Assembly (NCBI GenBank): GCA_014879445.1
Contig: JACSSC010000026.1
Coordinates: forward strand, 2,033 to 66,032
From: Candidatus Competibacteraceae bacterium
Lineage (GTDB): Bacteria > Bacteroidota > Bacteroidia > CAIKAF01
Direction: 5' to 3'
Length of the DNA stretch: 64,000 nt
Shown here piece after piece: positions 5,318-33,906 of the stretch (position 1 is its first letter; each line of letters opens with the position of its first letter). A program made the position numbers and the translations under genes. The notes beneath the pieces are model-generated. The model did not search any database and was not told the DNA's origin. It saw only the letters and a list, made by a program, of their open reading frames with translations.

Positions 5318-5372
5318 GTTGTGTAATAAAAAAAAAAGATTATAAATTGCATACTTAATTAAACATTTTATT

Positions 5373-6419: not shown

Positions 6420-6431
6420 AATCATAAAAAA

Positions 6432-6460
6432 ACAGCCGGACATGCCGGCTGTTTTTTTTT
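6432..6460 (+). terminator. Rho-independent terminator downstream of the 5373..6419 gene
   Basis: Perfect 8-bp stem acagccgg / ccggctgt with a 5-nt loop, followed by T9 (6452..6460). Sits 13 nt after the stop codon. Confidence 0.7.
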
Positions 6461-6598
6461 ATAATGTACATAATCTAAATTTTGATTAGCCCATATCCTA
6501 TTTATTGATGATTTGTTTTGTCGGAATAAAAAAGAAATCACTACCACATTCATCACTTCCAAAACTTCCCATTCTGGGTTCAGATTTTACACGCTCAA

Positions 6599-12126: not shown

Positions 12127-12572
12127 CAATTGTACACATATATCAATGCGCCGTCGAAACTAGTGCTGTATTGCTTAAGAGGATAAATGGCAGGGCCATC
12201 CACATTGCTTCCATTAATAAGATTAAATCGAGATCCACAACCTGACCCAGAGCAATCGTTATCCACGAGTAATAATCCGTTATCATCCACACTAACACGA
12301 CCACAGGGGTTCTCACTATCATACGGACAATGTCTTTCGTAGCAATTCACTTGATCAATAGAGGCCCTATACAATATTAATCCGCGTGATCCGCCATTCA
12401 AATATGCCCACCCTCCAACGGCCTGCAACGAAATAAATTGAGGTTCGAAAGTGCTTATTGTAACATTTATCGGCACATCAGGAATGTTGACCGGATACTG
12501 ATAGTTACAAGAAAACATAGAAGCCAAAACCAACATGAGAGAATAAATAGATACGCTCAGTTGCCATTTCAT
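12126..12572 (-). CDS. Hypothetical Cys-rich lipoprotein (148 aa) with Rieske box-2-like spacing
   Basis: N-terminus MKWQLSVSIYSLMLVLASMFSC is a lipoprotein signal. Motifs NCYERHCPY and DCSGSGCGSRFNLINGSNVDGP. Immediately upstream of recX and overlapping it by 1 nt. Confidence 0.5.
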   Translation of the reverse strand: MKWQLSVSIYSLMLVLASMFSCNYQYPVNIPDVPINVTISTFEPQFISLQAVGGWAYLNGGSRGLILYRASIDQVNCYERHCPYDSENPCGRVSVDDNGLLLVDNDCSGSGCGSRFNLINGSNVDGPAIYPLKQYSTSFDGALIYVYN

Positions 12573-12594
12573 TTTATACCTTTATACTGTGTTT

Positions 12595-14805: not shown

Positions 14806-15319
14806 TCACATTGTTGTTATAAGCTTCATACTTGCATGCCTTTGTGCAAGTGTGCAAAGCAACGTGCTATTTGCTCAAAAACGCAATCCCAAAATTGAGC
14901 GTACGACCGTAAAAGATGCTCCAGAAGAAACCAAGCACAATAAAAAAAACGTACGCCCTAAAAAAAGAAAAAAATTACAATCGCGTGACTTTATCAACCA
15001 CAAATACAGTATGCGAAAAAAAATGACGGCAAAAGAAAAAAGACAAGTTGATAAAATAGCCGGGGTGGATAGAAAAAAAGTGAGAAAAGAAAAAAAGAAA
15101 GAAAAGAAAACAGATAGGTATTTTAAAAAAGAAGAGCGAAAATTGCGTCGTAAACACATGCGATTGCAAGATCCTGACGTACGGAAAAGAATGCGAAAAA
15201 ACTTCCGTAAAACTAAAAAGGAGTTTATATCGCTTCAACAAAAAAAGAGAAAAAGCCCATTAAACAAAAAACCCGGAAAGCCCAAAAAACGCAAGCGACA
15301 TACGCTGCCTAAACCATAA
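14783..15319 (+). CDS. Hypothetical extremely basic (Lys/Arg-rich) low-complexity protein with a putative signal peptide
   Basis: GTG start at 14783, overlapping the previous stop. After MQKLFSNNHIVVISFILACLCASVQSNVLFAQ the protein is about 45% K/R. Strand is uncertain, because K-rich coding produces F/L-rich antisense ORFs. Confidence 0.4.
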   Translation: MQKLFSNNHIVVISFILACLCASVQSNVLFAQKRNPKIERTTVKDAPEETKHNKKNVRPKKRKKLQSRDFINHKYSMRKKMTAKEKRQVDKIAGVDRKKVRKEKKKEKKTDRYFKKEERKLRRKHMRLQDPDVRKRMRKNFRKTKKEFISLQQKKRKSPLNKKPGKPKKRKRHTLPKP

Positions 15320-17678: not shown

Positions 17679-20600
17679 TTATTTAACCACAATGCGGGTA
17701 ATGGCATTATGCTTTCCGGCCACCACACGAACCAGATAAGTACCGGCTGCATATGAACTGAAATCAACATCTGCTACAAAATAAGCTTGATGTACGCCCA
17801 TATTACGCATCCAAATTACTTTGCCGGCAAGATCCATCACAGATACATATACTATTTCAGTTCCATCAAATGTAAATGAAATACGAGAAAACTCATCTGT
17901 TGGGTTAGGATATACCGTCAACAGCTCTTCTGACTCGCTTTCGATACCATTAAACTGAACATCAATTTCAACCGTTTGAGTAACCGTTGTTGTTCCACAA
18001 TCATTGGTAACGGTCAATGTAACTGTATAAATACCTTCATTGGCATAGATGTGTACCGGATTCATCTCCGTTGATGTATTGCTATCACCAAAATCCCAAA
18101 AATAACTAGTTGCATTGGTTGAAGTATTCGTAAAGGCAGCCGAGTAGAAGCTAACGGAAGACGTGAAACTACCAGAAGGATTAGGAAAATCCGTTACAAT
18201 TACTGTATCAATAGCTAGTCCGCAATTTGAAATTACCTGCACAAAATATGTGGCAGGAACCAATGCGGTAATAGATGGTGTATTTTGGAAGAATGGGCTC
18301 CAGTTGTAAGTTGATCCGGCAATTACAGGAGCAGCAATCAGAACAGAATCAGAAGGACATTTAATCAAATCCGGTCCGAGCGTAAAGCCCGCAACCGAAA
18401 CAAATTCATCAGCGCCAATATCAGGGGTAGATGCATGGCGAGGATCACCGTCAAAATCAACTGAAACGCCGGCTATAGGTGTTGCGGCACCATCCAACTC
18501 GGTACGACAAGTATGAAGATCTGATCCGTTGAAATTAGGATTTAAAGATAAAGAAGCAGCATCAAATCCGGTAGCATTTTGCCAGTCGGCTAATGTAGCA
18601 TAGGTTGTTGTACCTAATGCAACAACATCCGTTCCGGCAACAAACAAGTTGTTATGGTTTGAGTTGGAAATATAAAACGCTGATTCGGAAAGAATGGCCA
18701 ATCCTGCACCGGCATTCATTATATTGTTGTTGATAATATCAATACCATTTGAACTACCATTAAACAAACGCAAAGCGCCCGAAGAAGTTGAAGTGCTTGA
18801 TGAGTAGAGAGAATTAAATACAACCTGAGTATTGCTCACATCTTGCAATGCAATACATTCGCTATAGGTAGGATCAATATTGATTCCCATATACACCATA
18901 TTATTGGCTACTAAAGATGGATTTGAAGGGTTGGCATCTATATTTACCAAATTGATACCAAAACCACCTTGAATACCGCCAACATGATTGCCGGTAACAA
19001 CAGTTCCATCCATAACTTGTTCGAGGTCTATGTGAAAAATATTTCCAATTCCATTTGAGGCAGAAGACATTACTTGATTGTTTCTTATTTCCGGACGAAT
19101 TTGGTTAACCAAAACTATTCCGGCCTGATAATATTGAGATATCGTGTTGTTATAGATTTCCAAACCTGACTCCATTAATACATTGCTTTGGCCAAACAAC
19201 CAAATAGCTCTTGATCCGCCAAAGATTTGATTGTTGCGAATAATAAGGTTATTGTCGTTTCCATCAACAGAGTTGATCGTATGCTTGTTGGCATCTACGG
19301 CAGCAGCCATGGTGTCGCCCATCAGCACACAATTTTCAATGATGATATCCTCTGAACCATTTTTAAGAGAAACTACAGTTGAGAAAAATGCCATATTTTG
19401 CAATGTTATCTCGTTAAGGGTAACACGATCAGCACCATTAAAGCCCACCACAAAGTTATTCGCAGTAGAGAAAGGCATAAAATCAAAAGTTACGTCAGTA
19501 GCATTTTGTGTTTCAGATTGAATTGTCAATCGGTAATTGCCTGCGCCTACTTCAGGGAAGGTGGCGATTTCTACCTGTTCGGTATATGTGCCCGGACGAA
19601 CATTCAAAGTAACATCTCCACATATTCCACGCAGCTCAATCGCATCTATGGCATCATTAAGCGTCGCAAAATCTGGTATTGTGCCATACACGGTATATAT
19701 ACCACTCATAGCGTCATAAACCTGACGAGTAATGGTGTCGTTGCCATCGTATTCGTCAGGATTCCCATTGGGATTCTCTGTCCAGATTTTCACTATATCT
19801 CCATCATTAAAATTGAAATATCCCAAGTCAACTTGTGTCGTTTGGTTTGAAGTCAGCAGCCCAGTCCAGTTGTATGTCATTACTGTAGTATTATTCACAT
19901 TCACTACAATATCAGCGGATGTAAGATCATTAACACCAATGGTCGTCAACAGCACTTTAATCGTATCCTCTACTGAGCAAGAAAGCGAAGGCGAAACAGA
20001 AGGAGAGACGATGGTAGCTATACCGGCGTCATCATTGGGGAGAGGGCGAATATCAACCAAATAATCTTCAGTTTCGCCCCAAGTATAGGTGCCACAAGGA
20101 GTAACTGTAGAAGCACTTCCCGATTCTCTACAAACTACACGCATGCCTGTAACGCCCGTTAAAGCACCCGGCGGAATGGTAATATTACCCAAAACTGAGC
20201 TTTGAGTTAAGGCGCTGGCGGGTCCGCCCATCACCAATTCGGCTGGGTCAGCATAAACGCCATCCTGATTAAAATCAATATACACTTCAACATAGCGACT
20301 ATTAAAACCGGAATTTTCACAATCCCGTGTGCTGATAACTGATGGATAGGATTGAGTTTTGAAGAATGCCGGCACCGGCGTAAGGGTAGTAAAATTCTGA
20401 TATCCGGTACAAACACCAAAACTTTGATTTACAAAAGACCCGATACGTACTGTATCAATATATTCATCAGCAGTAGAAGTAGCATTGGATGCACAATAGC
20501 AATTATAGAATGGCGTAACCATAACCTGTAATGGAGCAGAAGAATCTGTTTGGGCGCTACATGTAGCCATTGCCCTAAAATAAGTACTAGCAGCTAAATT

Positions 20601-21428
20601 AGTACTATAAGTTGCGCTGGTTGCCCCGGGAATGTTTGTCCATGTAATCCCATCAGGCGAAGATTGCCATTGATAGGTTTGGCCTAATCCGCCAGTTCCT
20701 CCAGTAAGTGATAAATACAACATTTGAGAAGGGCAAACAGGATTAGCAGAAGCTGTCGTTACACCGGCTACAGGAGGAGCGGTACAAGGAAGAGCCGGCT
20801 CAACCGTAACAGACCCTGTAAAGTAACGTGGAGTAAGTGTTAATCCCGTACCTGATCCAGAATAACCTACATTAAACCCTGCAATTTGTTGAGTACCTAC
20901 CTTCAAATTTACACCTGCCCCAGAAAAAATATTATTATCTGGAGAAAGAGGAGACCCAGTTCCACTATATCTAACACTTCCCGGACCTTGATTTTCTAAG
21001 GCAAAACGATATTCTGTTGATGCTGGAATTGTGAAACTCAGGCCAACAAAATTAATCGGTGCAATTCCTGAAGCAATAGCTGGTGTTGGAGAAGATGTAG
21101 CAATCAAATTCCAGTTGCCACTTTCACAATTGGTCGTGGAATTAGATAATTCAGTAGCCGTATAAAAAAGACGCCAAACCGAATTATTATCAGCTGTAGT
21201 AAGATAGTTTCCTATTCCTGTGAGCAACATTGGAAAAGGATTAGTATTCTGTATAACAAAAGAAATTTGCCCTCCGGCACCTAGTGAGTTCGTTCCTGTA
21301 TATGGTGGGAAAGGACCTGTTGTAAGTGTTGTCTGTGCTATAGTTACAGATGTAAAAAGCATCATGGCCAGTGCCGATAGACACAAATTGCGTATGCTTT
21401 TATTGATTGTGTTGTAGATTCTATACAT
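17679..21428 (-). CDS. Giant secreted T9SS cargo protein (1249 aa): GEVED-like motif, right-handed beta-helix repeats, PKD domain, T9SS type-A C-terminal domain
   Basis: Signal peptide; CGTYTWGETEDY motif; beta-helix repeat region (NNNIMNAGAG...); PKD signature YFWDFGDSNTSTEMNPVHIYANEGIYTVTLTVTNDCG; C-terminal Por_Secre_tail (LLTVYPNPTDE...GTYLVRVVAG...RIVVK). Confidence 0.85.
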   Translation of the reverse strand: MYRIYNTINKSIRNLCLSALAMMLFTSVTIAQTTLTTGPFPPYTGTNSLGAGGQISFVIQNTNPFPMLLTGIGNYLTTADNNSVWRLFYTATELSNSTTNCESGNWNLIATSSPTPAIASGIAPINFVGLSFTIPASTEYRFALENQGPGSVRYSGTGSPLSPDNNIFSGAGVNLKVGTQQIAGFNVGYSGSGTGLTLTPRYFTGSVTVEPALPCTAPPVAGVTTASANPVCPSQMLYLSLTGGTGGLGQTYQWQSSPDGITWTNIPGATSATYSTNLAASTYFRAMATCSAQTDSSAPLQVMVTPFYNCYCASNATSTADEYIDTVRIGSFVNQSFGVCTGYQNFTTLTPVPAFFKTQSYPSVISTRDCENSGFNSRYVEVYIDFNQDGVYADPAELVMGGPASALTQSSVLGNITIPPGALTGVTGMRVVCRESGSASTVTPCGTYTWGETEDYLVDIRPLPNDDAGIATIVSPSVSPSLSCSVEDTIKVLLTTIGVNDLTSADIVVNVNNTTVMTYNWTGLLTSNQTTQVDLGYFNFNDGDIVKIWTENPNGNPDEYDGNDTITRQVYDAMSGIYTVYGTIPDFATLNDAIDAIELRGICGDVTLNVRPGTYTEQVEIATFPEVGAGNYRLTIQSETQNATDVTFDFMPFSTANNFVVGFNGADRVTLNEITLQNMAFFSTVVSLKNGSEDIIIENCVLMGDTMAAAVDANKHTINSVDGNDNNLIIRNNQIFGGSRAIWLFGQSNVLMESGLEIYNNTISQYYQAGIVLVNQIRPEIRNNQVMSSASNGIGNIFHIDLEQVMDGTVVTGNHVGGIQGGFGINLVNIDANPSNPSLVANNMVYMGINIDPTYSECIALQDVSNTQVVFNSLYSSSTSTSSGALRLFNGSSNGIDIINNNIMNAGAGLAILSESAFYISNSNHNNLFVAGTDVVALGTTTYATLADWQNATGFDAASLSLNPNFNGSDLHTCRTELDGAATPIAGVSVDFDGDPRHASTPDIGADEFVSVAGFTLGPDLIKCPSDSVLIAAPVIAGSTYNWSPFFQNTPSITALVPATYFVQVISNCGLAIDTVIVTDFPNPSGSFTSSVSFYSAAFTNTSTNATSYFWDFGDSNTSTEMNPVHIYANEGIYTVTLTVTNDCGTTTVTQTVEIDVQFNGIESESEELLTVYPNPTDEFSRISFTFDGTEIVYVSVMDLAGKVIWMRNMGVHQAYFVADVDFSSYAAGTYLVRVVAGKHNAITRIVVK

Positions 21429-21492: not shown

Positions 21493-24400
21493 TTATTTAA
21501 TAATAATACGTACTGTTCTTTGATAATCACCAGCCCGAACCTTCATCAAATAAGTTCCGGCAGCTTGTCCTGTAATATCCATCATGGTGCTCAATCCATT
21601 GGTTGCGCTTCCCATTACCGATTGATGTATCAATCGTCCTGACAAATCATAAATATCAATCCAAACCTGATTGCTCACAACAGGTGCTAAGGCAACTGCA
21701 AATAATCCTTCTGAAGGATTAGGATACACCTGAAGCTGCAATGCCTCTTCATCTTCTAGCCCCGCCACATTGGGATTAATCACAATTACTTGAGAAGTAA
21801 CAGATGAATCGCCACAGTCGCTGTAAGCTGTTAATGTTACAGTATATGTGCCATTGGTTGGGTAAATATGATTGGGATTTTCAACAGTTGATGTATTGCC
21901 ATCTCCAAAATCCCAAAAATATGATGTAGCTTGTGAGGAATTGTTGCTGAAAGCAGCAGTAAAGAAGTTTTGATTATATGTGAAAGTGGCTGAAGGTGTA
22001 GAATAATTGGCAACCACAATCGAGTCCACTGAAATACCGCAAGCATGTATAATCTGAACAATATATGTTCCTGGCTGAGTAGCATAAATACCCGGTGTAT
22101 TTTGGAAGTATGGGCTCCAATAATAGGATGCACTTTCGATTTGTTCGGCACCCAACCAAACACTATCTGACGGACATTTTATCAAATCAGCGCCAAGCGT
22201 AAAGTTGGCTGATGATAAAAATTCGTCAGCGCCGATATCTGGCGTTGAAGTATTGCGTGTATCCTGATCAAAGTCGTGAGTTACTCCGGCAACGGGGATA
22301 CCGGCATTATCAAGCTCCACACGACAGGTATGCAAATCAGCACCATTAAACATTGGATCAACAGATAAAGAATTCAGCTCTTTTCCTGTAGCTGTCTGAA
22401 GCGCCGACAAATCGGCCATATTGGTTCCTACCCTAACAAAATTAGCAGAAGAAGTAAAATAATTGTTATGATTAGCTATATCTAAATACAAGGCAGATTC
22501 GCTATTTAAAGCAAATCCACTTCCTGCATTTACAATATTATTATTAAGAAGCGTAATACCTGACGACTGTCCATTATATACTCGAATACCGGCAGCTGTA
22601 GCTGTGGTTGCACGTGTGTGAACAGAATTGAATACAATATTCACATTGGCACATTCCTGTACTGCAATACCATGGCTATTGGTTGGCGAACCGGTAGCTC
22701 CCATATATACAAAGTTGTTAGCAATCAAACTTGGAGAGCCGGGTTGGGCGTCCACATCCAATAGATTAATTCCAAAACCGCCTTGATCGCCGGAAATAAG
22801 ATTTCCGGTTACTTCAGCGCCATTCAATACATCCTCTAAACTAATGTGGAAAATATTAGTGTTTGTATTTGAAGAATGGGATTGAATATTATTTTGCTTG
22901 ATAGCTGGTCCTGTTTGGCGAAGACCCACAATCGCTGCCGCCCTATAACGGCGAAATGTGTTATAAGCAACCAACAAGCCCGATTCAACTTCGGTAACAC
23001 TTGGGCCTGCTAAATAAATACCATACGAGCCACCTATTATGATGTTATGCTCAATTCTAGTTCCATTGTCAAGCCCATCAACTGAGCCAATTGCTATTTT
23101 GTTGGTCGTAGTGGTGGTTGCCAAACTATCGCTATACACATTACAATATTGTACAGCAATATTATTGTTACCACCCAACAATCTAACTACTCCAGAAAAT
23201 GTTGTGGAAGTATTGGCTAAAGTAAGACGGTTCAGTATGATGTTTTGGGATTGATTAAATCCAAATACATAATTCAGAGCTGTCGAAGTGGCCATATATT
23301 CAAAACGCACATCACTGGCATTCAAAGATTCTGACTGAATAGTAACCGTATATGAGCCGGTAGATGGATAAGGACCAACCAGCACTTGCTCATTATAGGT
23401 GCCTGCACGTACATTAAAAAATACATCACCGCAAATACCACGCAACTCAAGTGCTTCAATGGCATCATTCATTGTAGCAAAGTCGGGAGTAGTACCATAT
23501 ACGGTATAAACACCATTAAGCGCATCATACCCGATTACACTCATGCTATCGTTGAAGGCAAATTCATCCGCAACACCATTCGGGTTAGTAACCCAAACCA
23601 AAACCGTATCGCCATCATTCAAGCTAACTGCTCCTAAATTAACAGTAGTAGTTTGCCCTGAGGTAATACTGCCGGCCCAATTGTATGATGTAATAGTTGT
23701 GCCATTTACCGAAACATGAATCGTAGCACTGGTAAGCGTTGCGGTGCCAATTGTTGTAAGTGATACTACAACAAAATCATCCACGCTACATCCTCCAGTA
23801 GGCGGGTTAGAAGGAGAAATAATTTCGGCAATACCTGCATCATTTGCCGGTTGTGGAGCAATATTTACCATATAATCTTCCGTCTCTCCCCAGGTATAAG
23901 TACCACAAGGCATAACTGAATTAGGGTCAGAGCTTTCGAGTAAAACTACACGCATGCGTGTAATACCGGTGCTAGCCGTAACAGGAATGTTAACCACACC
24001 CGTAAAATCTTCAGCCGGAGTGGATGCAGTGGTTGGGCCAAATGCAAATACGGCTTCCTGAGGCAAATCAAAAATACCATTTTGATTATAGTCAATAAAT
24101 ACTCTACCCACTCTTGTATAAGAGCCACCGCATGTGCCCGATCTTACCAAGATAGGGTAAGAAATACCCTGAAACATCACACCAACCGGAGAAGAAACAT
24201 TGGTATAAGTTTCACAAGCAGTTGGTGAAGAAATATTATCAATATTAGATATCTTAACCCTGTCTATCTTAGAATCAGCTGTACTGGTAGCATTTGAAGC
24301 GCAGTAGCAATTAAAAAATGGTTGAAGTGTTACATTCTCAATACTGGTTGTATCACTTTGAGCAGAGCAAGTAACTACTGCTCGGAAAAAGATGTTGGAA

Positions 24401-25215
24401 TTGATGGTCGCATTATAAGTTGAGTTTGTTGCGCCTGAGATGTCGGTAAAAGTAATACCATCAGGTGATGATTGCCACTGATACGTTTGGCCTGAACCCA
24501 TCGTACCTCCTGTAATTGACAGGGTTACATTTGTGCCCGGACAAACAGGATTAGCACTGGCAAGAGCCATGCCTGCGGTTGGGGGTGCCGTACAAGCCGA
24601 ACCCGAGATATAAGTGATTTGCATGGCAGGTCGGGTAAATCCGGGGCCACTTGTAAGTCCGGTTGTCATGCTACACCCAACTTGACCATCATCATACTGC
24701 CCTGCATAGGCATTAAATGCATAATCATCTGACTGCACGGTGCTGCTACCATTCCAAGATGCATTATCAAAACAAACCTCTACAACAATATTATCTGAGC
24801 CATTCCAAATAAAGCTAGTGGCGAATGTGTATGTATTCCATCCCAAAGTTGGAGCAGACACGGCTTGAGAAAAACAAGTTGTAGAAGTTGGCAAAACCCC
24901 ACCAGGGTGAGCGCCCAATGCCGTATGGCCCATCTTAATCGAAAATCCGTTTAGGGGGTCGCCACTTGAAGATGTTACATTAAATCCCAATGCAGTAATA
25001 TTGCTGCTGGGAGTAAGGCCGGCTGACGATAATTCTGATGCTAAAATAATATATTGCACCCTGCCATCCTCCCAAAGTGTACCATAAGGAGTAATGCCTG
25101 ATGAGCCGGTAGTAGATAATCCCGCTCCTATTTGAACGGTTTGCGATAAAGCCGAAACCGATAAAAGTATCGCCAATCCGATTGACATTGATAAACAACG
25201 TAAGATTTTATTCAT
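21493..25215 (-). CDS. Giant secreted T9SS cargo protein (1240 aa), paralog of 17679..21428 with the same domain order
   Basis: Shares blocks with the neighbour: TYQWQSSPDGITF, CGTYTWGETEDY, YTVYGTTPDFATMNDAIEALELRGICGDV, PKD YFWDFGDGNTSTVENPNHIY, and a C-terminal Por_Secre_tail (LQVYPNPSEG...GTYLMKVRAG...RIIIK). Confidence 0.85.
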   Translation of the reverse strand: MNKILRCLSMSIGLAILLSVSALSQTVQIGAGLSTTGSSGITPYGTLWEDGRVQYIILASELSSAGLTPSSNITALGFNVTSSSGDPLNGFSIKMGHTALGAHPGGVLPTSTTCFSQAVSAPTLGWNTYTFATSFIWNGSDNIVVEVCFDNASWNGSSTVQSDDYAFNAYAGQYDDGQVGCSMTTGLTSGPGFTRPAMQITYISGSACTAPPTAGMALASANPVCPGTNVTLSITGGTMGSGQTYQWQSSPDGITFTDISGATNSTYNATINSNIFFRAVVTCSAQSDTTSIENVTLQPFFNCYCASNATSTADSKIDRVKISNIDNISSPTACETYTNVSSPVGVMFQGISYPILVRSGTCGGSYTRVGRVFIDYNQNGIFDLPQEAVFAFGPTTASTPAEDFTGVVNIPVTASTGITRMRVVLLESSDPNSVMPCGTYTWGETEDYMVNIAPQPANDAGIAEIISPSNPPTGGCSVDDFVVVSLTTIGTATLTSATIHVSVNGTTITSYNWAGSITSGQTTTVNLGAVSLNDGDTVLVWVTNPNGVADEFAFNDSMSVIGYDALNGVYTVYGTTPDFATMNDAIEALELRGICGDVFFNVRAGTYNEQVLVGPYPSTGSYTVTIQSESLNASDVRFEYMATSTALNYVFGFNQSQNIILNRLTLANTSTTFSGVVRLLGGNNNIAVQYCNVYSDSLATTTTTNKIAIGSVDGLDNGTRIEHNIIIGGSYGIYLAGPSVTEVESGLLVAYNTFRRYRAAAIVGLRQTGPAIKQNNIQSHSSNTNTNIFHISLEDVLNGAEVTGNLISGDQGGFGINLLDVDAQPGSPSLIANNFVYMGATGSPTNSHGIAVQECANVNIVFNSVHTRATTATAAGIRVYNGQSSGITLLNNNIVNAGSGFALNSESALYLDIANHNNYFTSSANFVRVGTNMADLSALQTATGKELNSLSVDPMFNGADLHTCRVELDNAGIPVAGVTHDFDQDTRNTSTPDIGADEFLSSANFTLGADLIKCPSDSVWLGAEQIESASYYWSPYFQNTPGIYATQPGTYIVQIIHACGISVDSIVVANYSTPSATFTYNQNFFTAAFSNNSSQATSYFWDFGDGNTSTVENPNHIYPTNGTYTVTLTAYSDCGDSSVTSQVIVINPNVAGLEDEEALQLQVYPNPSEGLFAVALAPVVSNQVWIDIYDLSGRLIHQSVMGSATNGLSTMMDITGQAAGTYLMKVRAGDYQRTVRIIIK

Positions 25216-25430
25216 GGTTTAATTATTTTGCTTGAGTTACGAGATGTCAAAATTAGATAAGTTTAGTTAATATCGAATTGTTTTATCATAGATTTTTTGT
25301 TATTGTACTCAATTTTACTTCAATAAACCTGTATCTTTCAGAAATATCATATAACTATACGTCGTATGAAACCATTTTTATAAAAACATTGCACTTGTCA
25401 TCCCGCCCGAATGCATTACCTTTGTACAGT

Positions 25431-26216
25431 ATGTCGGGATATCATTCGATGCAATCGTCTTCTTTTCAAACCTTTCTACAAATGGTTTGGGCGCTTGCTT
25501 GGAAAAACATTAGGGTTAAATACAAAAACTCAATCTTAGGTTTGTTATGGTCGCTCATTAACCCATTGCTATTTTTGCTGATATTTTCGTATGTGTTCGG
25601 ACATGCCTTCCCTGATATCGAGAATTACACATTGTTCGCCCTTACCGGATTGGTTATATGGTCAATCTTTCCTTTAGCCACATCGCAAAGTGCGCAGTCG
25701 CTGATTGAAGGTGGCCCCATTTTGAAAGCTCTAGCTGTACCTCCCATTGTTTTTCCAATTTCATCCCTGCTTGCCTCTGCATTTCAATTTTTTTTCACGC
25801 TGATTCCATTTGCTGCTATCATGGCCATTCTTGGCTACCAACCTAGCATTCATTTAATTGCCATTGTGCCTTTATTGATATTTTTCTTTCTCTTCATTGC
25901 CGGACTTTCTTTAATTATATGCTCTGTTCATGTTTTTTTCAGAGATGTTGGATTGCTTTGGAACACCTTGTTGCCGGCTATATTTTATTTCACACCTATA
26001 GCATATCCCCCAACATTAATACCCGAACATATTCGATGGGCCATGCAACTAAATCCTGTTTATCATTTTATCTCTCCATTCAGAATGTTAATATACGAAA
26101 AGCATTGGCCGGCATTATCAGATTGGATTCTGCTCAGTACCACTGGTACACTTTTCTTTGTCGTGAGTATTTTTGTATTTCGGGCCTTACAAAAACATTT
26201 TATTTCGCATTATTAA
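25431..26216 (+). CDS. wzm: ABC-2 type polysaccharide exporter permease (Wzm/TagG/KpsM family)
   Basis: Six predicted TM segments and the ABC-2 signature region. The track start (25278) is TTG; ATG at 25431 gives a typical Wzm N-terminus (MSGYHSMQ...WALAWKNIRVKYKNSILGLLWSLINP). Confidence 0.8.
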   Translation: MSGYHSMQSSSFQTFLQMVWALAWKNIRVKYKNSILGLLWSLINPLLFLLIFSYVFGHAFPDIENYTLFALTGLVIWSIFPLATSQSAQSLIEGGPILKALAVPPIVFPISSLLASAFQFFFTLIPFAAIMAILGYQPSIHLIAIVPLLIFFFLFIAGLSLIICSVHVFFRDVGLLWNTLLPAIFYFTPIAYPPTLIPEHIRWAMQLNPVYHFISPFRMLIYEKHWPALSDWILLSTTGTLFFVVSIFVFRALQKHFISHY

Positions 26217-26217
26217 A

Positions 26218-26955
26218 ATGAGCAAGCCGGCAATACAAATTACAGATGTTTCATTCAGTTTTCGCGTTAGTGATTCAGGGATTAACTCACTTCGTGAATG
26301 GTTAATGCGTGGTAGTAGAGGTCTTTTTCCAGCCAAACCCGTATTGAAACATATCGATCTGCAAATAGAAAAAGGCAGTTGTTTTGCCATACTAGGTCGT
26401 AATGGCTCAGGAAAAAGCACATTATTGCGTGTCATTTCAGGCATTATTACACCCGATAATGGGAAAGTGGAGGTTCAGGGGCGAATTGCACCCGTGTTAT
26501 CATTAGGAGCCGGACTTGAGCCCGAATTGACAGGATATGACAATATACGGCTACTATGCACGTTGATGGGCTTCAGGCCAAAAGAAATTCGATTTTTTAT
26601 GCCTCAGATAGCACAGTTCTCCGAATTAAGCGAATCAGACCTGCGCATGCAAGTTAAAAGATATTCCACCGGCATGATGGCGCGACTCACGTTCTCAATT
26701 GCTGTTGCTTCGCAGCCCGATATCTTAATCATTGATGAGGTGCTGGCAGTAGGCGATGCAGGGTTTCAAGAAAAATGCTACCGTCGTATTCGCGAAATCA
26801 ATCAGCAAGGGGCCACCATAATTTTTGTTTCTCACAGCATTCATGATGTTCTCATGCTATGCAATCAAGCTTGTGTAATGAACGATGGCCGGATTACTTT
26901 TTTCGGCGATGTGAAAGATTCATGTGATATTTATACCCGGCAATTTCAAACCTGA
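26218..26955 (+). CDS. wzt: ABC polysaccharide exporter ATP-binding protein (Wzt/TagH/KpsT family) without a C-terminal carbohydrate-binding domain
   Basis: Walker A GRNGSGKST, signature YSTGMMARL and Walker B ILIIDE. 245 aa. ATG at 26218 immediately follows the wzm stop. Confidence 0.85.
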   Translation: MSKPAIQITDVSFSFRVSDSGINSLREWLMRGSRGLFPAKPVLKHIDLQIEKGSCFAILGRNGSGKSTLLRVISGIITPDNGKVEVQGRIAPVLSLGAGLEPELTGYDNIRLLCTLMGFRPKEIRFFMPQIAQFSELSESDLRMQVKRYSTGMMARLTFSIAVASQPDILIIDEVLAVGDAGFQEKCYRRIREINQQGATIIFVSHSIHDVLMLCNQACVMNDGRITFFGDVKDSCDIYTRQFQT

Positions 26956-26963
26956 ACAACTGC

Positions 26964-29900
26964 ATGAGCTCAAAATCTGTCCCCGACATATCAATTATCA
27001 TTCCCTGTTACAACGATGGCATTCACCTGCCCGAACTCATTAGCAGCATTCCTCCTTCCATTCCGGGAAGGGAAATAGAAATAGTAATTGTTGATGATGG
27101 ATCAACAGACGAGAGAACGCTTTCCATACTAAAAGAAATATCGGGTTTTGCTAAGGTAATATACCAAGCTAATACTGGCGTATCTTCGGCACGCAACAAC
27201 GGAATTCGAAATGCCACCGCCAACTATATTTTGCCGGTAGATGCAGACAACAAAATAACATCCGACCTGATAGACCAATCACTTTGTATTCTAAAAGAGA
27301 ACCCTGCGATTCATATTGTTTATACCGATGCTTATCTATTTGGTAGAGAATCAGGGATAAGAAATACAGGCGATTTTTGCATTCATAAACTTAAACAAGG
27401 AAATTACATAGATACATGTGCCGTGTATCGTCGTAATGTTTGGCTGGAGACAGGAGGTTATGATGAGGCGTTGAACCGCTATACATATGAAGATTGGGAG
27501 TTCTGGCTTCATGCAGCTTCCAAAGGATTTGGATTTTATTATCTCAAACAGCCCCTCTATTATTACCGAATTAAAAACGATACACGAAATGATGCAGGGC
27601 TCGATCCAGACAAAAGAACTTTTATAGTAAAGCACATTATAAAAAAGCATCATACGCTTTTTGAAGAAGATTTTCCTGACACAATAGCTGCCCTTCATGG
27701 CATTATAGCTCTTTGGGAAGGTCCTAATCAAACAAAGTGGGAAGAAGAAAAAAAATTAATACAACAGGCATGCGTTTCTCAGATCAATCAAGTGATTCTC
27801 CAATACGAATCAGAAATTAAAAAACTCGAAAAAGATTTTCAGCATAGAACGGAAGAAAACAAAAACCAATTTGAACTACAGTTAGCAGAAGAAAAAAAAT
27901 CGTCTCAAGAAAAAATCAAAAAAATTGAAGACGAAAACGACAAGCAACTCACTCGACTAACCCATGAATTAGAGTTTGAAAAAACAACAGCCACTAATCA
28001 ACAAATCGTTATAAGAAAATTTGAAGAGCGCATCAGAAGCATGGAAAGTACGCGAACATGGCGATTGCGAAGAGCGTATTACAAAATGCGTAATGTGCTA
28101 AAACAGCCAAAGCGCAAAAAATGGCGTATTCCCGGTTTGGGATGGATTAAAAAAATCATCTTTTTTACACTAGGAAAAGGGCGAATTATGACGAGAAGAT
28201 TATTTAAAAAAATCTTCAAAAGTATGTATCTATGGCTTGAAGAATTTCCTGTTCGCATTGTGCCTGTTAGCCAACTCCCCTATATGTCCATTCCATCTGA
28301 TCCATACGGGCAATGGCGACTTCTAAACGCACCACGTGAAGCTGAATTCAAACAATACAAACAAGCGATTGAAACTTTTTCACACAAACCACTTATTAGT
28401 ATTTTACTCCCTGTTTACAACACGCCCATTCATTTTCTCAAGGCCTGTATTAATTCTGTTGCAGGGCAATTATACGAAAATTGGGAACTCTGTATTGCCG
28501 ATGACGCCTCTACAAATCAAGAAGTACATAAAACGCTTAATGATTATGCCGAAAACGATTATCGCATCCGCGTAACATTTCGTGCCGAAAATGGCCATAT
28601 ATCAGAAAGCAGCAATACCGCACTAAATATGGCGAAGGGAGAATATGTGCTTCTGCTCGACCACGATGATGAATTATCGCATGATTGCCTTTATCATATA
28701 GTAGAACGCATAAATAAAGATGCCAACCTTGACCTAATATATTCTGACGAAGATAAAATAGATGAAAACGGATCACACAGCATGCCACATTTCAAGCCCC
28801 AGTGGTGTCCTGATAGTTTTATGTCTAGAAATTACATTGGCCATGTAGTAGTTTGCCGAACAAATTTGCTGAAAGAGATTGGAGGATTTAGAACAGGTTT
28901 TGAAGGCAGTCAGGATTACGATATGTTATTGCGATTTACAGAACGCACTCAACAGATCGGGCACATTCCAAAAATTTTATACCATTGGCGCATTCATGCT
29001 GCATCAACAGCCAGCTTGGAGGATGCCAAGCCATACGCATACGAAGCAGCAAGAAAAGCCCTGACAGAAGCATGTGAGCGACGCAACGAACCTGCCGAAG
29101 TGCGATTTATCTCCATACTTCGAGGATATTATGCGCCACGTTATCAAATCAAAGACAAACCTAAAGTTTCGATTATTATTCCGACTAAAGACCAAGCACA
29201 TATTCTCGAAACTGCCCTTCGGTCCATTTTTGAAACTAGTTCTTGGAAGAATTTTGAAGTCATAGTGGTTTCAAACAACAGTTCCGAAAAATCACTTTTT
29301 CAACTCCTCAACCTATATAGCCAGAACTATCCCGAGCAATTCAAGTGGTTTAGCTGTGATATTCCTTTCAATTTTTCGCGACTGGTGAATGAAGGTGTTA
29401 AGCAGGCAACCGGCGACTATCTTTTGCTGCTGAATAACGATATTGAAGTTGTAACCACCGATTGGCTCGAAGCTATGATAGAACAGGCGCAAAGAAAATC
29501 AATCGGTGCTGTTGGCGTAAAGCTTCTGTATTACAACGGAAACATACAACACGCCGGAGTAATAATAGGGTTGGGTGGTGTTGCCGGTCATGCCTTTGTT
29601 GGGCTTCACCGCGATGATCCGGGATATTTCAATTATCTGCAATGCATCAATAATTTCAGCGCAGTAACAGCCGCCTGCTTAATGGTAAGCAAAGAGAAAT
29701 TTATTCAAGTCGGCGGATTTGATGAGATGTTTGAAATCGAATTCAACGACGTGGATTTTTGCCTCCGACTTCACAATGCCGGATACAATAATGTGTACCT
29801 ACCACACGTTGAACTTTTCCATTATGAATCATTAACACGTGGGCATCCGCATCTTAGCAAAGAATCATACGACAGGCATGTTCGCGAACTCACCCTCTTT

Positions 29901-29990
29901 ACTTCGCGCTGGAAACACATTGTAGAAAACGATCCCTGCTACAGCCCCAATCTCACTCGTGGCAATCATGATTTTTCACTTGCCTTGTAA
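26964..29990 (+). CDS. Multidomain glycosyltransferase (1008 aa): GT2 domain, ~120-residue coiled coil, then two more GT2 domains
   Basis: Three GT2-A N-terminal signatures: ISIIIPCYNDG... (aa ~10), ISILLPVYNTP... (aa ~475), VSIIIPTKDQA... (aa ~730), each followed by DxD-type motifs (VDAD, DHDDE, NNDIE). Between domains 1 and 2 lies a heptad-rich, charged region (KKLEKDFQHRTEENKNQFELQLAEEKKSSQEKIKKIEDENDKQLTRLTHELEFEK). Confidence 0.85.
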   Translation: MSSKSVPDISIIIPCYNDGIHLPELISSIPPSIPGREIEIVIVDDGSTDERTLSILKEISGFAKVIYQANTGVSSARNNGIRNATANYILPVDADNKITSDLIDQSLCILKENPAIHIVYTDAYLFGRESGIRNTGDFCIHKLKQGNYIDTCAVYRRNVWLETGGYDEALNRYTYEDWEFWLHAASKGFGFYYLKQPLYYYRIKNDTRNDAGLDPDKRTFIVKHIIKKHHTLFEEDFPDTIAALHGIIALWEGPNQTKWEEEKKLIQQACVSQINQVILQYESEIKKLEKDFQHRTEENKNQFELQLAEEKKSSQEKIKKIEDENDKQLTRLTHELEFEKTTATNQQIVIRKFEERIRSMESTRTWRLRRAYYKMRNVLKQPKRKKWRIPGLGWIKKIIFFTLGKGRIMTRRLFKKIFKSMYLWLEEFPVRIVPVSQLPYMSIPSDPYGQWRLLNAPREAEFKQYKQAIETFSHKPLISILLPVYNTPIHFLKACINSVAGQLYENWELCIADDASTNQEVHKTLNDYAENDYRIRVTFRAENGHISESSNTALNMAKGEYVLLLDHDDELSHDCLYHIVERINKDANLDLIYSDEDKIDENGSHSMPHFKPQWCPDSFMSRNYIGHVVVCRTNLLKEIGGFRTGFEGSQDYDMLLRFTERTQQIGHIPKILYHWRIHAASTASLEDAKPYAYEAARKALTEACERRNEPAEVRFISILRGYYAPRYQIKDKPKVSIIIPTKDQAHILETALRSIFETSSWKNFEVIVVSNNSSEKSLFQLLNLYSQNYPEQFKWFSCDIPFNFSRLVNEGVKQATGDYLLLLNNDIEVVTTDWLEAMIEQAQRKSIGAVGVKLLYYNGNIQHAGVIIGLGGVAGHAFVGLHRDDPGYFNYLQCINNFSAVTAACLMVSKEKFIQVGGFDEMFEIEFNDVDFCLRLHNAGYNNVYLPHVELFHYESLTRGHPHLSKESYDRHVRELTLFTSRWKHIVENDPCYSPNLTRGNHDFSLAL

Positions 29991-29994
29991 CCTG

Positions 29995-30696
29995 TCAAAA
30001 AGCAGCTTCCATGCCTAGTTTTACAATGGGCATATCAGGATATCCATATGGGGTTCTGAATAATGGAGTAAAACGAACTGTAGTGACAGCTGCTATATGT
30101 GTCCACCCAAACTTAACATAGGCCTCGCCATAATTTGGCAGAGTATATGCAAGATTATGGGTGCGTGTCTGCTGAGATTCTCCACCAGGTAATTCTTCAT
30201 TATACACATGAAAAAATCGGATAGCCCAAACATGGTTCACGCCTGTTTCAATGTATATTCCATAACTACTTATTCGTTGTTTACCCAAATTAAAACGCAA
30301 AAAACCTCCACTAACAAAGCTCTGTAAATTAAACCATTCCGATTGGTGCAATATTGTGTCGGGCACTACTTTATGATAATCCTGCACCAAACGAAAAGTT
30401 TCGGTTGCGTATTGCAGTTTCACTCCGATATGAAACCATCTGGTAATTTTTCTTTTATAATCCAAGCCCAAGCGGAAATTCACACTATGACCCAAATGCA
30501 CGCGTGCACCATCGCTTTGAGGCCCCAATGCCCAATTGAGCTGCACGTACGGAAAGAGCATGTTAGGTGCATTTCGCCCCCATTTCTTCACACGTGGCGT
30601 ATAAGATACCGAATCTCTCCTGAAAATCATTCGTTGCGAAAAAGCGGAAAATGATATCAGAACTAATAATATTGTAATGAGGTTTTTCTTTATCAT
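29995..30696 (-). CDS. Hypothetical outer-membrane beta-barrel protein
   Basis: Signal peptide MIKKNLITILLVLISFSAFSQ, alternating amphipathic strands, and a C-terminal aromatic residue (...LGMEAAF). Overlaps the upstream S8 protease gene by 4 nt. Confidence 0.5.
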   Translation of the reverse strand: MIKKNLITILLVLISFSAFSQRMIFRRDSVSYTPRVKKWGRNAPNMLFPYVQLNWALGPQSDGARVHLGHSVNFRLGLDYKRKITRWFHIGVKLQYATETFRLVQDYHKVVPDTILHQSEWFNLQSFVSGGFLRFNLGKQRISSYGIYIETGVNHVWAIRFFHVYNEELPGGESQQTRTHNLAYTLPNYGEAYVKFGWTHIAAVTTVRFTPLFRTPYGYPDMPIVKLGMEAAF

Positions 30697-32297
30697 GGTA
30701 TCGTAATTTCAGCGGTATATCCACTCATGTGTAAACGAATGATATCTCCCGATTGAACAAATAAATGGTAAGAGTTTGATTTTTTTATTAAAGATAAATC
30801 ACGAGATAGTGTAAAATTTACCAAATGAGAATTCTCTATCTCTATCAAGCCATATGTCCGCAAAATACCCGATTGGGACTGCACATGAAAATATAGCAAA
30901 GGATTAACATCTGCTGAATGAACAAACAAGCTGTCAGGAAATATTAACAAGTCATCAGCAACAAGTTCTGTTTTGAAACACGGAAAAGGGCGAGGTAGTG
31001 CAAAAAATCTTGCTGCATGCGGAACGCCATAACCATGTGCATAATCAAAATAAGGATACAAATGCGAGGCCTGTTCAATGCGATTAATAATATCAATCGG
31101 TCGCAACGTATCGCCAAGTGCCTGCCATACACAAGCAGCAAGGCCTGCCACAAGTGGCGCCGCAAATGAAGTGCCTTCGGCTGCATATAAAGAAGAGCGT
31201 CCAAATACTGTTACCCATCCCGGGGCACAAACATTGGGCTTAAGACGGCCATCCGCAGTAGGCCCAACAGAACTATAAGACGTTTGAAAATCCGTTTCGG
31301 GCTCCACCGCTCCAACCGTCAGAATATTATCTGCATCAGCAGGAATTATCAATGACTTCCACATACCATTATACTCATTGCCGGCAGCATTCACCAACAA
31401 CATTCCCTTATCAGCGGCCATTGATGCCACACGGCTTAATCTCGATTGCCCATTTAACTCATGTCGTTCAAATCGAGGACTTGCATAGCCCAAAGAGCTG
31501 TTTACAATGTTTGCACCATGCATATCAGCCCATTCTAATGCTGCAATCCAACGATCTTCTTCCTTGCGATTTTCACTAAATACCGATTCGGTGCGTGCCA
31601 GCAGATAAGTAGCCCCTGTTGCAAGGCCGGTTTGTAAAGTATCATTCATACCTGCCAAACATGACAACACCATAGTGCCATGAGTAGCACCTCGATACAC
31701 ATGATTATCTTTTTTTATAAAATCCCAGGTTTTTTCGATACGATTATTTTGAAATAAGTGCGCAAAACCTGACGATTGGGGCACCCCCAAAAATCCTGCA
31801 TCAATGACACATATACGAACGCCTTTGCCTGTGTAATTTTGTTGTTGCAAAAAAGGAAGTCCAATTCTATTAAGCTGATGTTCAGAAAGCGCTTTCAACA
31901 ATGGTACCTTTCTTCCGGATGTAGTGCATATTGCAGTATATTCTTCATCATTTATTTTTTCAATTTGCATCACAAAAGGCAATGTTTTTAACTCTTCTAT
32001 TTGCTTTGCATCAGCATACACCTTAACAGCATTTAACCATCTGCTGCTATAACCCATCGAATCAACATAAAAAGAAACTTGCTGTAAATAGTTGGCACAT
32101 ACCGGATAATCGGAATAATCAAAATCAATGTGCATCAACTCTCTTCGCTGAATAGAATGCGCCGAAAAAAATGAAGAAAGTTGTACCTGAGATGTGTCTC
32201 CTTTGTCGGTCAAATAAACCCACCAAACATCCTGGGCGTACATGCCTGAATAGAAAAGCAAAAATACAATCAGAATAAAAAACCTCAAGACACTCAT
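30693..32297 (-). CDS. Subtilisin-like serine protease (peptidase S8)
   Basis: Asp-His-Ser catalytic triad motifs VRICVIDAGF, GATHGTMVLSCLAG and GTSFAAPLVAGLAAC. Signal peptide present. Confidence 0.85.
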   Translation of the reverse strand: MSVLRFFILIVFLLFYSGMYAQDVWWVYLTDKGDTSQVQLSSFFSAHSIQRRELMHIDFDYSDYPVCANYLQQVSFYVDSMGYSSRWLNAVKVYADAKQIEELKTLPFVMQIEKINDEEYTAICTTSGRKVPLLKALSEHQLNRIGLPFLQQQNYTGKGVRICVIDAGFLGVPQSSGFAHLFQNNRIEKTWDFIKKDNHVYRGATHGTMVLSCLAGMNDTLQTGLATGATYLLARTESVFSENRKEEDRWIAALEWADMHGANIVNSSLGYASPRFERHELNGQSRLSRVASMAADKGMLLVNAAGNEYNGMWKSLIIPADADNILTVGAVEPETDFQTSYSSVGPTADGRLKPNVCAPGWVTVFGRSSLYAAEGTSFAAPLVAGLAACVWQALGDTLRPIDIINRIEQASHLYPYFDYAHGYGVPHAARFFALPRPFPCFKTELVADDLLIFPDSLFVHSADVNPLLYFHVQSQSGILRTYGLIEIENSHLVNFTLSRDLSLIKKSNSYHLFVQSGDIIRLHMSGYTAEITIP

Positions 32298-32348: not shown

Positions 32349-32702
32349 ATGTTGAGCAATGCATATATTTGCACTATGAAATGTCGGTATATTCTATCCG
32401 TGGGCATCTTTTTCATGTTTTCATGCAACTATTATTCCGTCAATACAGAAAATAATAATACTTCACACGTTAAAACAGGCAAAGTCATCTATCAAAATGA
32501 ATGTATGATGTGTCATGGCGAAAACGGAAAGAAAAGAGTTTTAGGTGCCGGTGATCTCAGCCAGTCCGTATTAACGATTAGCGAACGAATTGAAATCATA
32601 ACATACGGAAAAAAAAGCATGCCTTCATTTGAACAGCGATTGAAATCAGAACAAATTAGAGAAGTAGCAGAATATTTAGAATCACTGAAGCCACATGATT
32701 GA
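32349..32702 (+). CDS. Class I c-type cytochrome (mono-haem)
   Basis: CxxCH haem-binding motif CMMCHG and distal Met region (KKSMPSF). N-terminal signal/lipobox-like sequence. The stop overlaps the hflX start by 8 nt. Confidence 0.7.
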   Translation: MLSNAYICTMKCRYILSVGIFFMFSCNYYSVNTENNNTSHVKTGKVIYQNECMMCHGENGKKRVLGAGDLSQSVLTISERIEIITYGKKSMPSFEQRLKSEQIREVAEYLESLKPHD

Positions 32703-33906
32703 AATACAAAAAATAGCCGACCGTCCGATGCAATGTGTGCTGGTTGGCATAGCCAATACCAAACAACCGGAAGATAAACTAACTGAATATCTTGACGAAC
32801 TTTCATTTCTTGCCGAAACAGCCGGCATACAAGCAATAAGAAGGTTTACACAACGCCTCGACAAACCATTACCCGGTACATTTATAGGTAGTGGAAAACT
32901 AGAAGAGTTAAAACAATTTGTTGAGGATAATCAAATAGCATGTGTTATTTTTGATGACGAACTTTCGCCTGCCCAATTGCGCAATATAGATAACATTTTC
33001 AACCCCAAAGAACACGATAAAAAAGTTCGGGTTCTTGACCGCACAAATCTGATACTTGACATTTTTGCACAACGAGCACGCACGGCACATGCTCGTACAC
33101 AGGTTGATTTGGCCTATTACAAATATATGTTGCCACGATTAAAAGGGATGTGGACACACCTTGAACGACAGCGTGGAGGAACAGGCACAAGGGGCGGATC
33201 GGGCGAAAAAGAAATTGAAACCGACAGCCGTATTATTCGCGAACGCATTGCCCTGCTCACTGCCAAACTAAAAGAAATTGACAAACAGATGCTCACCCAA
33301 AGAAAAAATCGAGGGGAAATGGTACGTGTGGCTTTAGTTGGATACACCAATGCCGGCAAAAGCACGCTTATGAACATGCTAAGCAAAAGTGACGTGTTTG
33401 CCGAAGATAAACTGTTTGCCACCCTAGACACAACCGTACGAAAAGTAGTAATCGGGAACCTCCCTTTTCTTCTTAGTGACACCGTTGGGTTTATTCGAAA
33501 ATTACCTACCCAACTCATCGAATCTTTTAAATCAACCCTAGATGAACTTCGCGAATCTGATCTATTGCTGCATGTTGTAGATATTTCGCATCCCCAATTT
33601 ACAGACCACTATGCCGTAGTTAACCAAACTTTGGCCGAAATTAACGCTGCAGACAAGCCCACGATTGTTGTTTTCAATAAAGTTGATAATTATATCAATC
33701 CATCATTTGACCCTGACGATATGACCAACAAAAAGGAGCCCACACTTGACGACTGGAAAAAAACCTGGATGTCGAAACTTGGCGACGACTGCATTTTTAT
33801 CTCAGCCACCCAAAAAACCAATATGGAGGCCTTCAGGCAAAAAGTTTACGATCGGATTGCCGAAATTTACAAAATCAGATATCCATACCATCATTTTCTA
33901 TACTGA
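32695..33906 (+). CDS. hflX: GTPase HflX
   Basis: HflX N-terminal domain plus G-domain motifs G1 GYTNAGKST, G3 DTVGF and G4 NKVD. Confidence 0.9.
   Translation: MIEIQKIADRPMQCVLVGIANTKQPEDKLTEYLDELSFLAETAGIQAIRRFTQRLDKPLPGTFIGSGKLEELKQFVEDNQIACVIFDDELSPAQLRNIDNIFNPKEHDKKVRVLDRTNLILDIFAQRARTAHARTQVDLAYYKYMLPRLKGMWTHLERQRGGTGTRGGSGEKEIETDSRIIRERIALLTAKLKEIDKQMLTQRKNRGEMVRVALVGYTNAGKSTLMNMLSKSDVFAEDKLFATLDTTVRKVVIGNLPFLLSDTVGFIRKLPTQLIESFKSTLDELRESDLLLHVVDISHPQFTDHYAVVNQTLAEINAADKPTIVVFNKVDNYINPSFDPDDMTNKKEPTLDDWKKTWMSKLGDDCIFISATQKTNMEAFRQKVYDRIAEIYKIRYPYHHFLY

Follow-up and report, generated by a model that had tools for sequence, protein, structure and literature searches.

How does a bacterium decide that a surface glycan is long enough, if the transporter that exports it carries no module for reading the end of the chain? 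The question is raised by three genes in an uncultured Flavobacteriales lineage, located on a 64,000-nucleotide stretch of contig JACSSC010000026.1 (hereafter the window): wzm and wzt, encoding the permease and the ATPase of a transporter of the ATP-binding cassette (ABC) type, and a gene for a 1008-aa multidomain glycosyltransferase (GT). Chain-length control in ABC-transporter-dependent glycans is known from a few enterobacterial prototypes, in which a coiled-coil ruler is always accompanied by a terminator and by a transporter module that reads the cap. By analogy with related proteins, the N-terminal GT2 domain of the 1008-aa enzyme is best read as a candidate chain terminator. We give an even chance to the proposal that the three genes form a self-contained core that makes and exports a lipid-linked glycan by the ABC-transporter-dependent route, with this domain capping the chain at the end of a predicted coiled coil.

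The three genes are co-directional, with spacers of 1 nt between wzm and wzt and of 8 nt between wzt and the GT gene. The original prediction, which was made from the DNA letters and a list of open reading frames (ORFs), had their order and common direction right but gave the gaps as 2 and 9 nt. The start of wzm is ambiguous: on identical metagenome contigs, gene callers place it at TTG 25395 (273 aa) or at ATG 25449 (255 aa), and the original prediction started it at ATG 25431 (261 aa). The contig itself recurs in several metagenome assemblies with 100% protein identity.

The only PDB sequence matches of Wzm are TarG (2e-16), TagG (4e-14), Mycobacterium tuberculosis Wzm (1e-13) and Aquifex aeolicus Wzm (2e-12). 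Among solved structures, Wzt comes closest to A. aeolicus Wzt (1e-51), followed by TarH/TagH (~1e-45) and then by M. tuberculosis RfbE (5e-41); the next class scores 1e-29. Because both subunits match the TarGH/TagGH/Wzm-Wzt class in structures as well as in families, we assign the exporter, by its sequence, to the pumps for polyprenol-linked glycopolymers, in a version without a carbohydrate-binding module (CBM). The alignment of A. aeolicus Wzt (404 aa) with Wzt of the window is confined to the nucleotide-binding part of the former, residues 36-226. As had been predicted for this short protein, the C-terminal carbohydrate-binding domain is missing: Pfam found no Wzt_C (PF14524), and the extension past the nucleotide-binding domain (NBD) is 0 aa long.

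A drug- or teichoic-acid-type pump that is unrelated to the GT and lies beside it incidentally had been named as an outcome that would overturn the glycan assignment. The top NCBIfam match of Wzt is in fact TagH (2.9e-52), slightly ahead of galactan Wzt (1e-49), with all matches far below the curated cut-offs. However, TagGH and Wzm/Wzt constitute one mechanistic class, the export of polyprenol-linked glycopolymers, and ATPases of the drug and nodulation types trail far behind, at 1e-31 or worse. Moreover, the gene order is kept, with a spacing of 0-8 nt, across homologs that are 37-75% identical and into the Campylobacterota. Exporter class and conserved synteny thus effectively refute an unrelated pump, and we attach a negligible probability to it.

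To place the module among its relatives, we surveyed 92 fetched loci by phmmer with Pfam spot checks. About 30 full-length homologs of the 1008-aa protein were found, mostly in Flavobacteriales metagenome-assembled genomes (MAGs), which are also the nearest named genomes and include Salibacteraceae and Vicingaceae. In 10 of 12 lineages, wzm-wzt lies directly upstream of the gene with the order GT2-coil-GT2-GT2, often with overlapping stop and start codons. WbgA of Myxococcus xanthus also belongs to a wzm-wzt-wbgA operon. A permease, an ATPase of the Wzt/TagH clade and co-encoded GTs that are predicted to be cytoplasmic are all present, which places the locus, as far as homology tells, within ABC-transporter-dependent (Wzm/Wzt) glycan assembly. 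The earlier assignment to this pathway is upheld by the structure matches of both transporter subunits and by this gene order.

Pfam places PF00535 (1e-67) at three distinct sites along the 1008-aa protein, and an AlphaFold2 model computed from a 25-sequence alignment contains three GT-A domains, mostly with a predicted local distance difference test (pLDDT) score >90; the three GT2 domains that the original prediction had proposed are thus confirmed. Their coordinates and those of the other features are given in the table below. All of the catalytic signatures listed there are invariant in 25 full-length homologs of 37-75% identity, including D566-H-D568-D569 in domain 2 and N824-N-D826 in domain 3, and E176 of domain 1 is kept in at least 90% of them. 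Because the nucleotide-binding, DXD-type and acid/base motifs are invariant across these homologs, all three domains look active. The top Foldseek matches of the model are polymerases with two GT-A domains, K4CP (2.6e-24) and PmHS2. Domain 1 matches PDB entry 6p61 (1e-16) and superposes on a Leptospira GT2 with a TMt of 0.88 in Foldseek. PDB sequence and fold searches returned only generic GT-A proteins and the two-domain polymerases K4CP and PmHS2, with no match to WbbB or WbdD.

Table. Features of the three-gene unit; nt positions are those of the window.
Feature	Position (nt)	Strand	Basis
Divergent intergenic region between a type IX secretion system (T9SS) cargo gene (- strand) and wzm; presumably the promoter site of the three-gene unit	25216..25430		
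wzm, ABC-2 type permease, glycan/teichoic-acid class exporter, 261 aa from ATG 25431	25431..26216	+	PF01061 ABC2_membrane, 3e-19 (Pfam); PDB sequence matches
wzt, ATPase subunit, 245 aa, NBD only	26218..26955	+	PF00005 ABC_tran, 4.5e-20 (Pfam); no PF14524
1008-aa multidomain GT: GT2, coil, amphipathic segment, GT2, GT2	26964..29990	+	Pfam, homolog alignment, AlphaFold2, Foldseek
GT2 domain 1 (aa 1-235), candidate chain-terminating (capping) GT	26964..27668	+	Invariant D45, D93-x-D95, D177; pLDDT >90; role suggested by position
Helical heptad-rich spacer (aa 237-378), predicted coiled coil	27672..28097	+	AlphaFold2 helices, heptad score; variable in both sequence and length across homologs
Cationic amphipathic segment (aa 380-428, net charge +13), predicted peripheral membrane anchor beside the polymerase	28101..28247	+	Hydrophobic moment; conservation
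GT2 domain 2 (aa 474-720), first polymerase module	28383..29123	+	DXDD D566/D568/D569; D513-D514; D651-x-D653; K4CP A2 domain 1e-26
GT2 domain 3 (aa 733-1008), second polymerase module	29160..29987	+	NXD N824/D826; N771; D929-x-D931

The GT2 domains differ in kind. The second and third are a conserved and very widespread polymerase pair, which we found in at least 598 genome stretches from cyanobacteria, Firmicutes, Proteobacteria, Verrucomicrobia and the candidate phyla radiation, and domain 1 with the coil is a separable module. The latter also exists without the polymerase pair, in a protein (P0105) whose locus (L092) additionally encodes Wzm, a short Wzt and further GTs. At this locus, the gene for a Peptidase_S74 protein (4970-7066) separates a GT4 gene from the wzm/wzt pair.

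Over 572 aa, residues 439-1008 share 48% identity (8e-173) with a 715-aa dual-GT2 protein that resembles Enterococcus faecalis EpaO (L054); for an EpaN-like protein, the identity is 35%. The enterococcal loci, which are called Epa-like by gene order and domain content only, encode Wzm, Wzt with Wzt_C, a 1085-aa methyltransferase-GT2-GT2 protein and then a dual GT2, which fits the published description of EpaL-M-N-O. According to this description, EpaN is proposed to terminate the chain with an O-methyl cap and EpaO to polymerise rhamnose. The order of wzm, wzt and a large multidomain GT is shared with the window; the Epa system differs in that the terminator (a methyltransferase with a GT2 pair) and the polymerase are two proteins, that EpaM has Wzt_C and that the product resides on Gram-positive peptidoglycan.

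A second point of comparison is Klebsiella pneumoniae O7 ORF6, which is likewise ABC-transporter dependent and in which a coiled coil is followed by a DXDD GT2 and an NXD GT2 (N1230/D1232), a likeness that we drew from published motifs. The rhamnan polymerase activity of the DXDD/NXD pair of ORF6-C has been characterised in vitro (PMC11231755). ORF6 differs in having a methyltransferase-kinase at its N-terminus instead of a GT2, in needing an extra ribofuranosyltransferase and in being paired with a Wzt of the CBM class. Judged by its tandem DXDD and NXD modules and by full-length similarity, the C-terminal half of the protein belongs with the dual-GT2 polymerases of the EpaO/O7 ORF6-C type. 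By similarity to both, the polymer is plausibly an alpha-1,2/alpha-1,3 L-rhamnan; for dTDP-rhamnose as the donor we would put the chance at slightly less than even.

Between domains 1 and 2, AlphaFold2 predicts helices at residues 237-252, 254-308, 316-361 and 364-378. Residues 253-378 include neither proline nor glycine beyond the initial G253/P254, and 49% of this stretch consists of E, K, Q, R and D; its equivalents contain at most one proline in every homolog. A crude heptad score reached 0.45-0.65, compared with a 95th percentile of 0.42 for shuffled sequences. The heptad-rich coil of about 120 residues that had been proposed for this position is consequently supported for residues ~254-378 by the model and by composition, although less rigorously. 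Among 25 homologs, the variable helical segment is 47-143 aa long and barely conserved in sequence. The spacer as a whole (aa 237-378) closes with a conserved motif, E-x-R-I-x(3)-E-x-T-x-T-W-R-L-R. Because its length varies to this extent while the flanking domains stay conserved, the helical segment behaves like a spacer.

The amphipathic segment that follows contains the highest hydrophobic moment of the protein (0.66 at residues 411-428), and a hydrophobicity scan of the 1008 residues found no segment that reaches transmembrane hydrophobicity. It is kept in the Flavobacteriales homologs and absent from the cyanobacterial ones. Polymerase GT modules and a proximal element for membrane association, of the type found in WbbB and O7 ORF6, are accordingly predicted to be present.

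The element order matches that of WbbB from the K. pneumoniae/Raoultella terrigena O12 system, a single chain composed of an N-terminal terminating GT, a central coiled-coil ruler and two C-terminal polymerising GTs, which is also served by a Wzm/Wzt exporter (Kelly et al. 2024, PMC11231755). The modules of WbbB are GT99, GT102 and GT103 instead of GT2, and no sequence similarity between WbbB and the protein of the window was detected. In addition, the CBM of its Wzt reads terminal beta-Kdo, whereas Wzt of the window has none, and the terminator activity of WbbB is proven, whereas domain 1 is only positioned alike. WbdD/WbdA of Escherichia coli O9a is the split version of the coil terminator-polymerase design (PMC11231755). 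There, a coiled-coil protein that carries the terminator at its distal end and an anchor near the membrane brings in a dual-GT polymerase, a split that P0105 mirrors. The O9a system differs in that WbdD is a kinase-methyltransferase and WbdA a GT4 protein, that polymerase and ruler are separate chains and that Wzt has a CBM.

The case for a terminator draws on what sister proteins carry at the position of domain 1. N-terminal to a heptad-rich spacer and the GT2 pair, we found a methyltransferase in two loci (L020 and L064, with a Wzt C-terminal extension of 176-261 aa that is CBM-sized by length only), a sulfotransferase in a Nostoc MAG (L026) and a pyruvyltransferase in a Nostoc MAG (L021), the latter two with a Wzt that lacks a CBM. 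The family of the window carries a GT2 at this position, with a CBM-less Wzt in Flavobacteriales and a CBM in Sulfurovum. The methyl-, sulfo- and pyruvyltransferases are modifiers and not repeat-unit enzymes. Because sister proteins carry such enzymes before the coil on the same GT2 pair, we regard the N-terminal GT2 as the candidate terminator, and the original prediction, according to which no terminator is adjacent, needs to be amended in this respect. The short Wzt proteins of the two Nostoc loci are 244-246 aa long, and both loci represent further terminator-like modules beside a transporter without a cap-reading module.

The Sulfurovum relative (L027) has the same GT2-coil-GT2-GT2 order and a 443-aa Wzt with Wzt_C (2.9e-15). 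Its locus also contains Wzz-like and weakly WaaL-like genes, a gene for a PglF-like dehydratase and further GTs; no methyltransferase or kinase was found near it.

Several observations weigh against capping by domain 1. Every characterised terminated system has a CBM on Wzt (Kelly et al. 2024, PMC11231755). Of the Flavobacteriales lineages in which a wzt adjoins the module, all (9/9) encode a Wzt that lacks the CBM and ends 0-16 aa past the ATPase domain, and a CBM-less transporter is the hallmark of the terminator-free mechanism of the O2a type. In K. pneumoniae O2a, such a transporter couples extension to export without any terminator (PMC11231755). Domain 1 is 40-50% identical to many ordinary stand-alone GT2 enzymes of Bacteroidota; a search with domain 1 plus the coil returned hundreds of such proteins of ~275 aa, and the genomic contexts of two of them (L093 and L094) were generic and gave no functional clue. 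The model contains a helix break at residues 309-315 (pLDDT 45-65), and the coil may be either an extended rod or a hairpin. Domain activities, donor and product are predictions by similarity and position, and an NCBIfam scan of the whole protein and of each domain reached no equivalog cut-off, so that no donor or linkage could be assigned. Finally, rml, primer and ligase genes are absent from the window.

The main rival is a coupled system of the O2a type, in which domain 1 is an adaptor that acts on the lipid-linked primer, or a third repeat-unit or side-branch GT, the coil does no more than oligomerise or scaffold the enzyme, and chain length follows from the ratio of polymerase to transporter with extension and export obligatorily coupled. 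The missing CBM favours this alternative: Wzt is without one throughout the Flavobacteriales clade, and it is this lack that defines the mechanism of K. pneumoniae O2a; O2a WbbM, a dual-GT polymerase, likewise works with an NBD-only Wzt of ~245 aa. The resemblance of domain 1 to stand-alone GT2 enzymes fits as well; the window has no gene for a WbbL-type adaptor next to the module, which would otherwise leave the adaptor role without a gene; and the helix break would permit a hairpin that returns domain 1 to the membrane. However, the methyl-, sulfo- and pyruvyltransferases at the position of domain 1 in the sister proteins are impossible as backbone enzymes, and the Sulfurovum relative combines the same architecture with a CBM on Wzt. 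Furthermore, two GT4 genes in relatives are already well placed as adaptors. A long coil with a distal module has not been reported for the described O2a-type polymerases, and O2a itself has neither a terminator nor a ruler-type coil bearing a distal catalytic module, its chain length being set by stoichiometry. We consider a coupled system to be a substantial possibility, though less likely than not. Because modifiers occupy the same position in sister proteins and a CBM is present in the Sulfurovum relative, we favour termination by domain 1.

If domain 1 is a terminator, the cationic amphipathic segment of the 1008-aa enzyme would tether it to the inner membrane, on the cytoplasmic side. 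As homology suggests, the C-terminal GT2 modules would alternate in polymerising a repeat on an undecaprenyl-diphosphate-linked primer made elsewhere in the genome. The N-terminal GT2 would be held off the membrane by the helix of ~125 residues, which may span ~16-19 nm if fully extended, and would add a non-repeat terminal sugar once the chain reaches it, stopping extension much as the N-terminal Kdo transferase of WbbB does. Because Wzt has no carbohydrate-binding module, Wzm/Wzt would export the chain without reading the cap; either termination and export are uncoupled, or the cap may be read in some other way. A ligase elsewhere in the genome would then attach the chain, as the WaaL-like genes of relatives suggest.

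The design itself is already known from K. pneumoniae O12 WbbB, O7 ORF6 and enterococcal EpaN/EpaO. The idea of a ruler-type polymerase in the original prediction is reasonable, but the fusion of polymerase and ruler in one chain is not new, with WbbB (O12) and ORF6 (O7) as precedents (PMC11231755). What is new is a GT2 at the terminator position on an EpaO-type polymerase in Bacteroidota, together with the consistent pairing of a ruler-type protein and a CBM-less exporter. That this amounts to a clade-wide Flavobacteriales system, perhaps including the Nostoc sulfo- and pyruvyltransferase fusions, in which a coil ruler and a GT2 cap set the length while the exporter lacks a cap-reading module, is a tentative proposal that we hold to be rather unlikely. 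If the N-terminal GT2 does cap chains, termination works without an export checkpoint, the two are separable, and a plain GT2 can serve as a terminator; moreover, a compact three-gene cassette, consisting of an exporter and a single protein for polymerase, ruler and terminator, would be at hand for testing or glycoengineering. If domain 1 does not cap, the coil has a scaffold role that has not been described yet. Either way, the locus gives a first handle on surface-glycan synthesis in this uncultured lineage.

Related genomes indicate what else the pathway may comprise. In five Flavobacteriales loci (L012, L013, L014, L016 and L018), a gene for a WaaL-like ligase and two GT4 genes lie divergently upstream, and an AlgX-like and MBOAT pair lies downstream; the two WaaL-like proteins of these loci that were scanned matched Wzy_C with 6e-18 and 1.5e-13. 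With the WaaL-like ligase, the pair of GT4 genes and MBOAT/AlgX of these five loci taken together, the pathway in these genomes looks O-antigen-like and ligase-using. The WaaL-like, GT4 and AlgX/MBOAT neighbours are absent from the window and from its closest relative (L005), where T9SS cargo genes are found instead. Searching the window for homologs of the MBOAT/AlgX, WaaL and GT4 partners of relatives returned a single match, an isolated generic GT4 at 43612-44751 (35 bits).

More broadly, genes for one or two AlgX-like SGNH proteins lie downstream of the GT gene, next to the wzm-wzt-GT module or to relatives of the dual-GT2 kind, in 11 lineages (L006, L008, L010, L012, L013, L014, L016, L018, L019, L023 and L032), and MBOAT was also detected in 10 of these 11, L014 being the exception. 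The AlgX-like/MBOAT pair suggests periplasmic O-acetylation of the exported glycan. It is absent from the window, L005 and L011.

For the window itself, 47 ORFs were scanned with Pfam; they include every non-nested ORF of at least 150 aa bar one (156 aa, 11659-12129). Among them, there are no sugar-nucleotide, initiating transferase or ligase genes, so the earlier statement that sugar-nucleotide genes and an initiating transferase are lacking beside the module holds. No rml genes were found in the window or in the flanks examined, and a tRNA scan of the window found no tRNA genes. The rest of the window mostly encodes housekeeping functions (LysRS, TrmD, HflX, a TRAP transporter, GlyRS, EngA, MutL and methylmalonyl-CoA mutase) or T9SS cargo.

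The upstream boundary of the three-gene unit is the divergent gene for a 1240-aa T9SS cargo protein, one of two tandem paralogs of ~1240 aa (17679-21428 and 21493-25215, both on the - strand) that each contain GEVED, PKD and Por_Secre_tail domains. This neighbourhood had raised the idea that the glycan serves T9SS cargo as an anchor or a decoration, in analogy with anionic lipopolysaccharide. In its favour, the two cargo genes with their T9SS C-terminal domain (CTD) lie divergently upstream, CTD and CHU_C cargo as well as PorP/SprF also flank the relative L005 (59% identical), and L011 has one CTD gene nearby. However, Por_Secre_tail occurs in seven of the ~47 large ORFs of the window, the other five being at 5373-6419, 10147-11148, 55368-56762, 56892-58961 and 59260-62271, and chance adjacency is likely. 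The neighbouring cargo proteins of the window and of L005 are non-orthologous, CTD neighbours are confined to the window, L005 and L011 and are missing from L006, L008, L010, L012-L014, L016 and L027, and the conserved neighbours elsewhere are the WaaL-like ligase, GT4 genes and MBOAT/AlgX. With CTD genes abundant in the window and their adjacency not conserved, we rejected the T9SS link as highly improbable.

Downstream, a 233-aa ORF (29995-30696, - strand) is convergent with the GT gene, its end lying 4 nt past the GT stop, and overlaps the end of an S8 subtilase gene (30693-32297, - strand) by 4 nt. Its product has a signal peptide, a C-terminal aromatic residue and no Pfam match, and is possibly an outer-membrane beta-barrel; its adjacency to the module is not kept in other lineages.

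Elsewhere, the hflX GTPase gene (32695-33906 in the window) is split in two by an rve-family integrase of an insertion sequence element in a locus of the same species (L004, 15732-18482). The split was seen in one metagenome assembly (ERZ27309503), and the gene is intact in the others, which makes it a population-level insertion variant. Upstream of lysS lie two ORFs without a Pfam match, encoding 738 aa (12589-14805, + strand) and 178 aa (14783-15319, + strand). A 547-aa protein with a caspase-like Peptidase_C14 domain is encoded at 6599-8242 (- strand), and a protein with a Peptidase_S74 domain, as found in endosialidases or tail-fibre chaperones, at the window edge (62522-63970, - strand).

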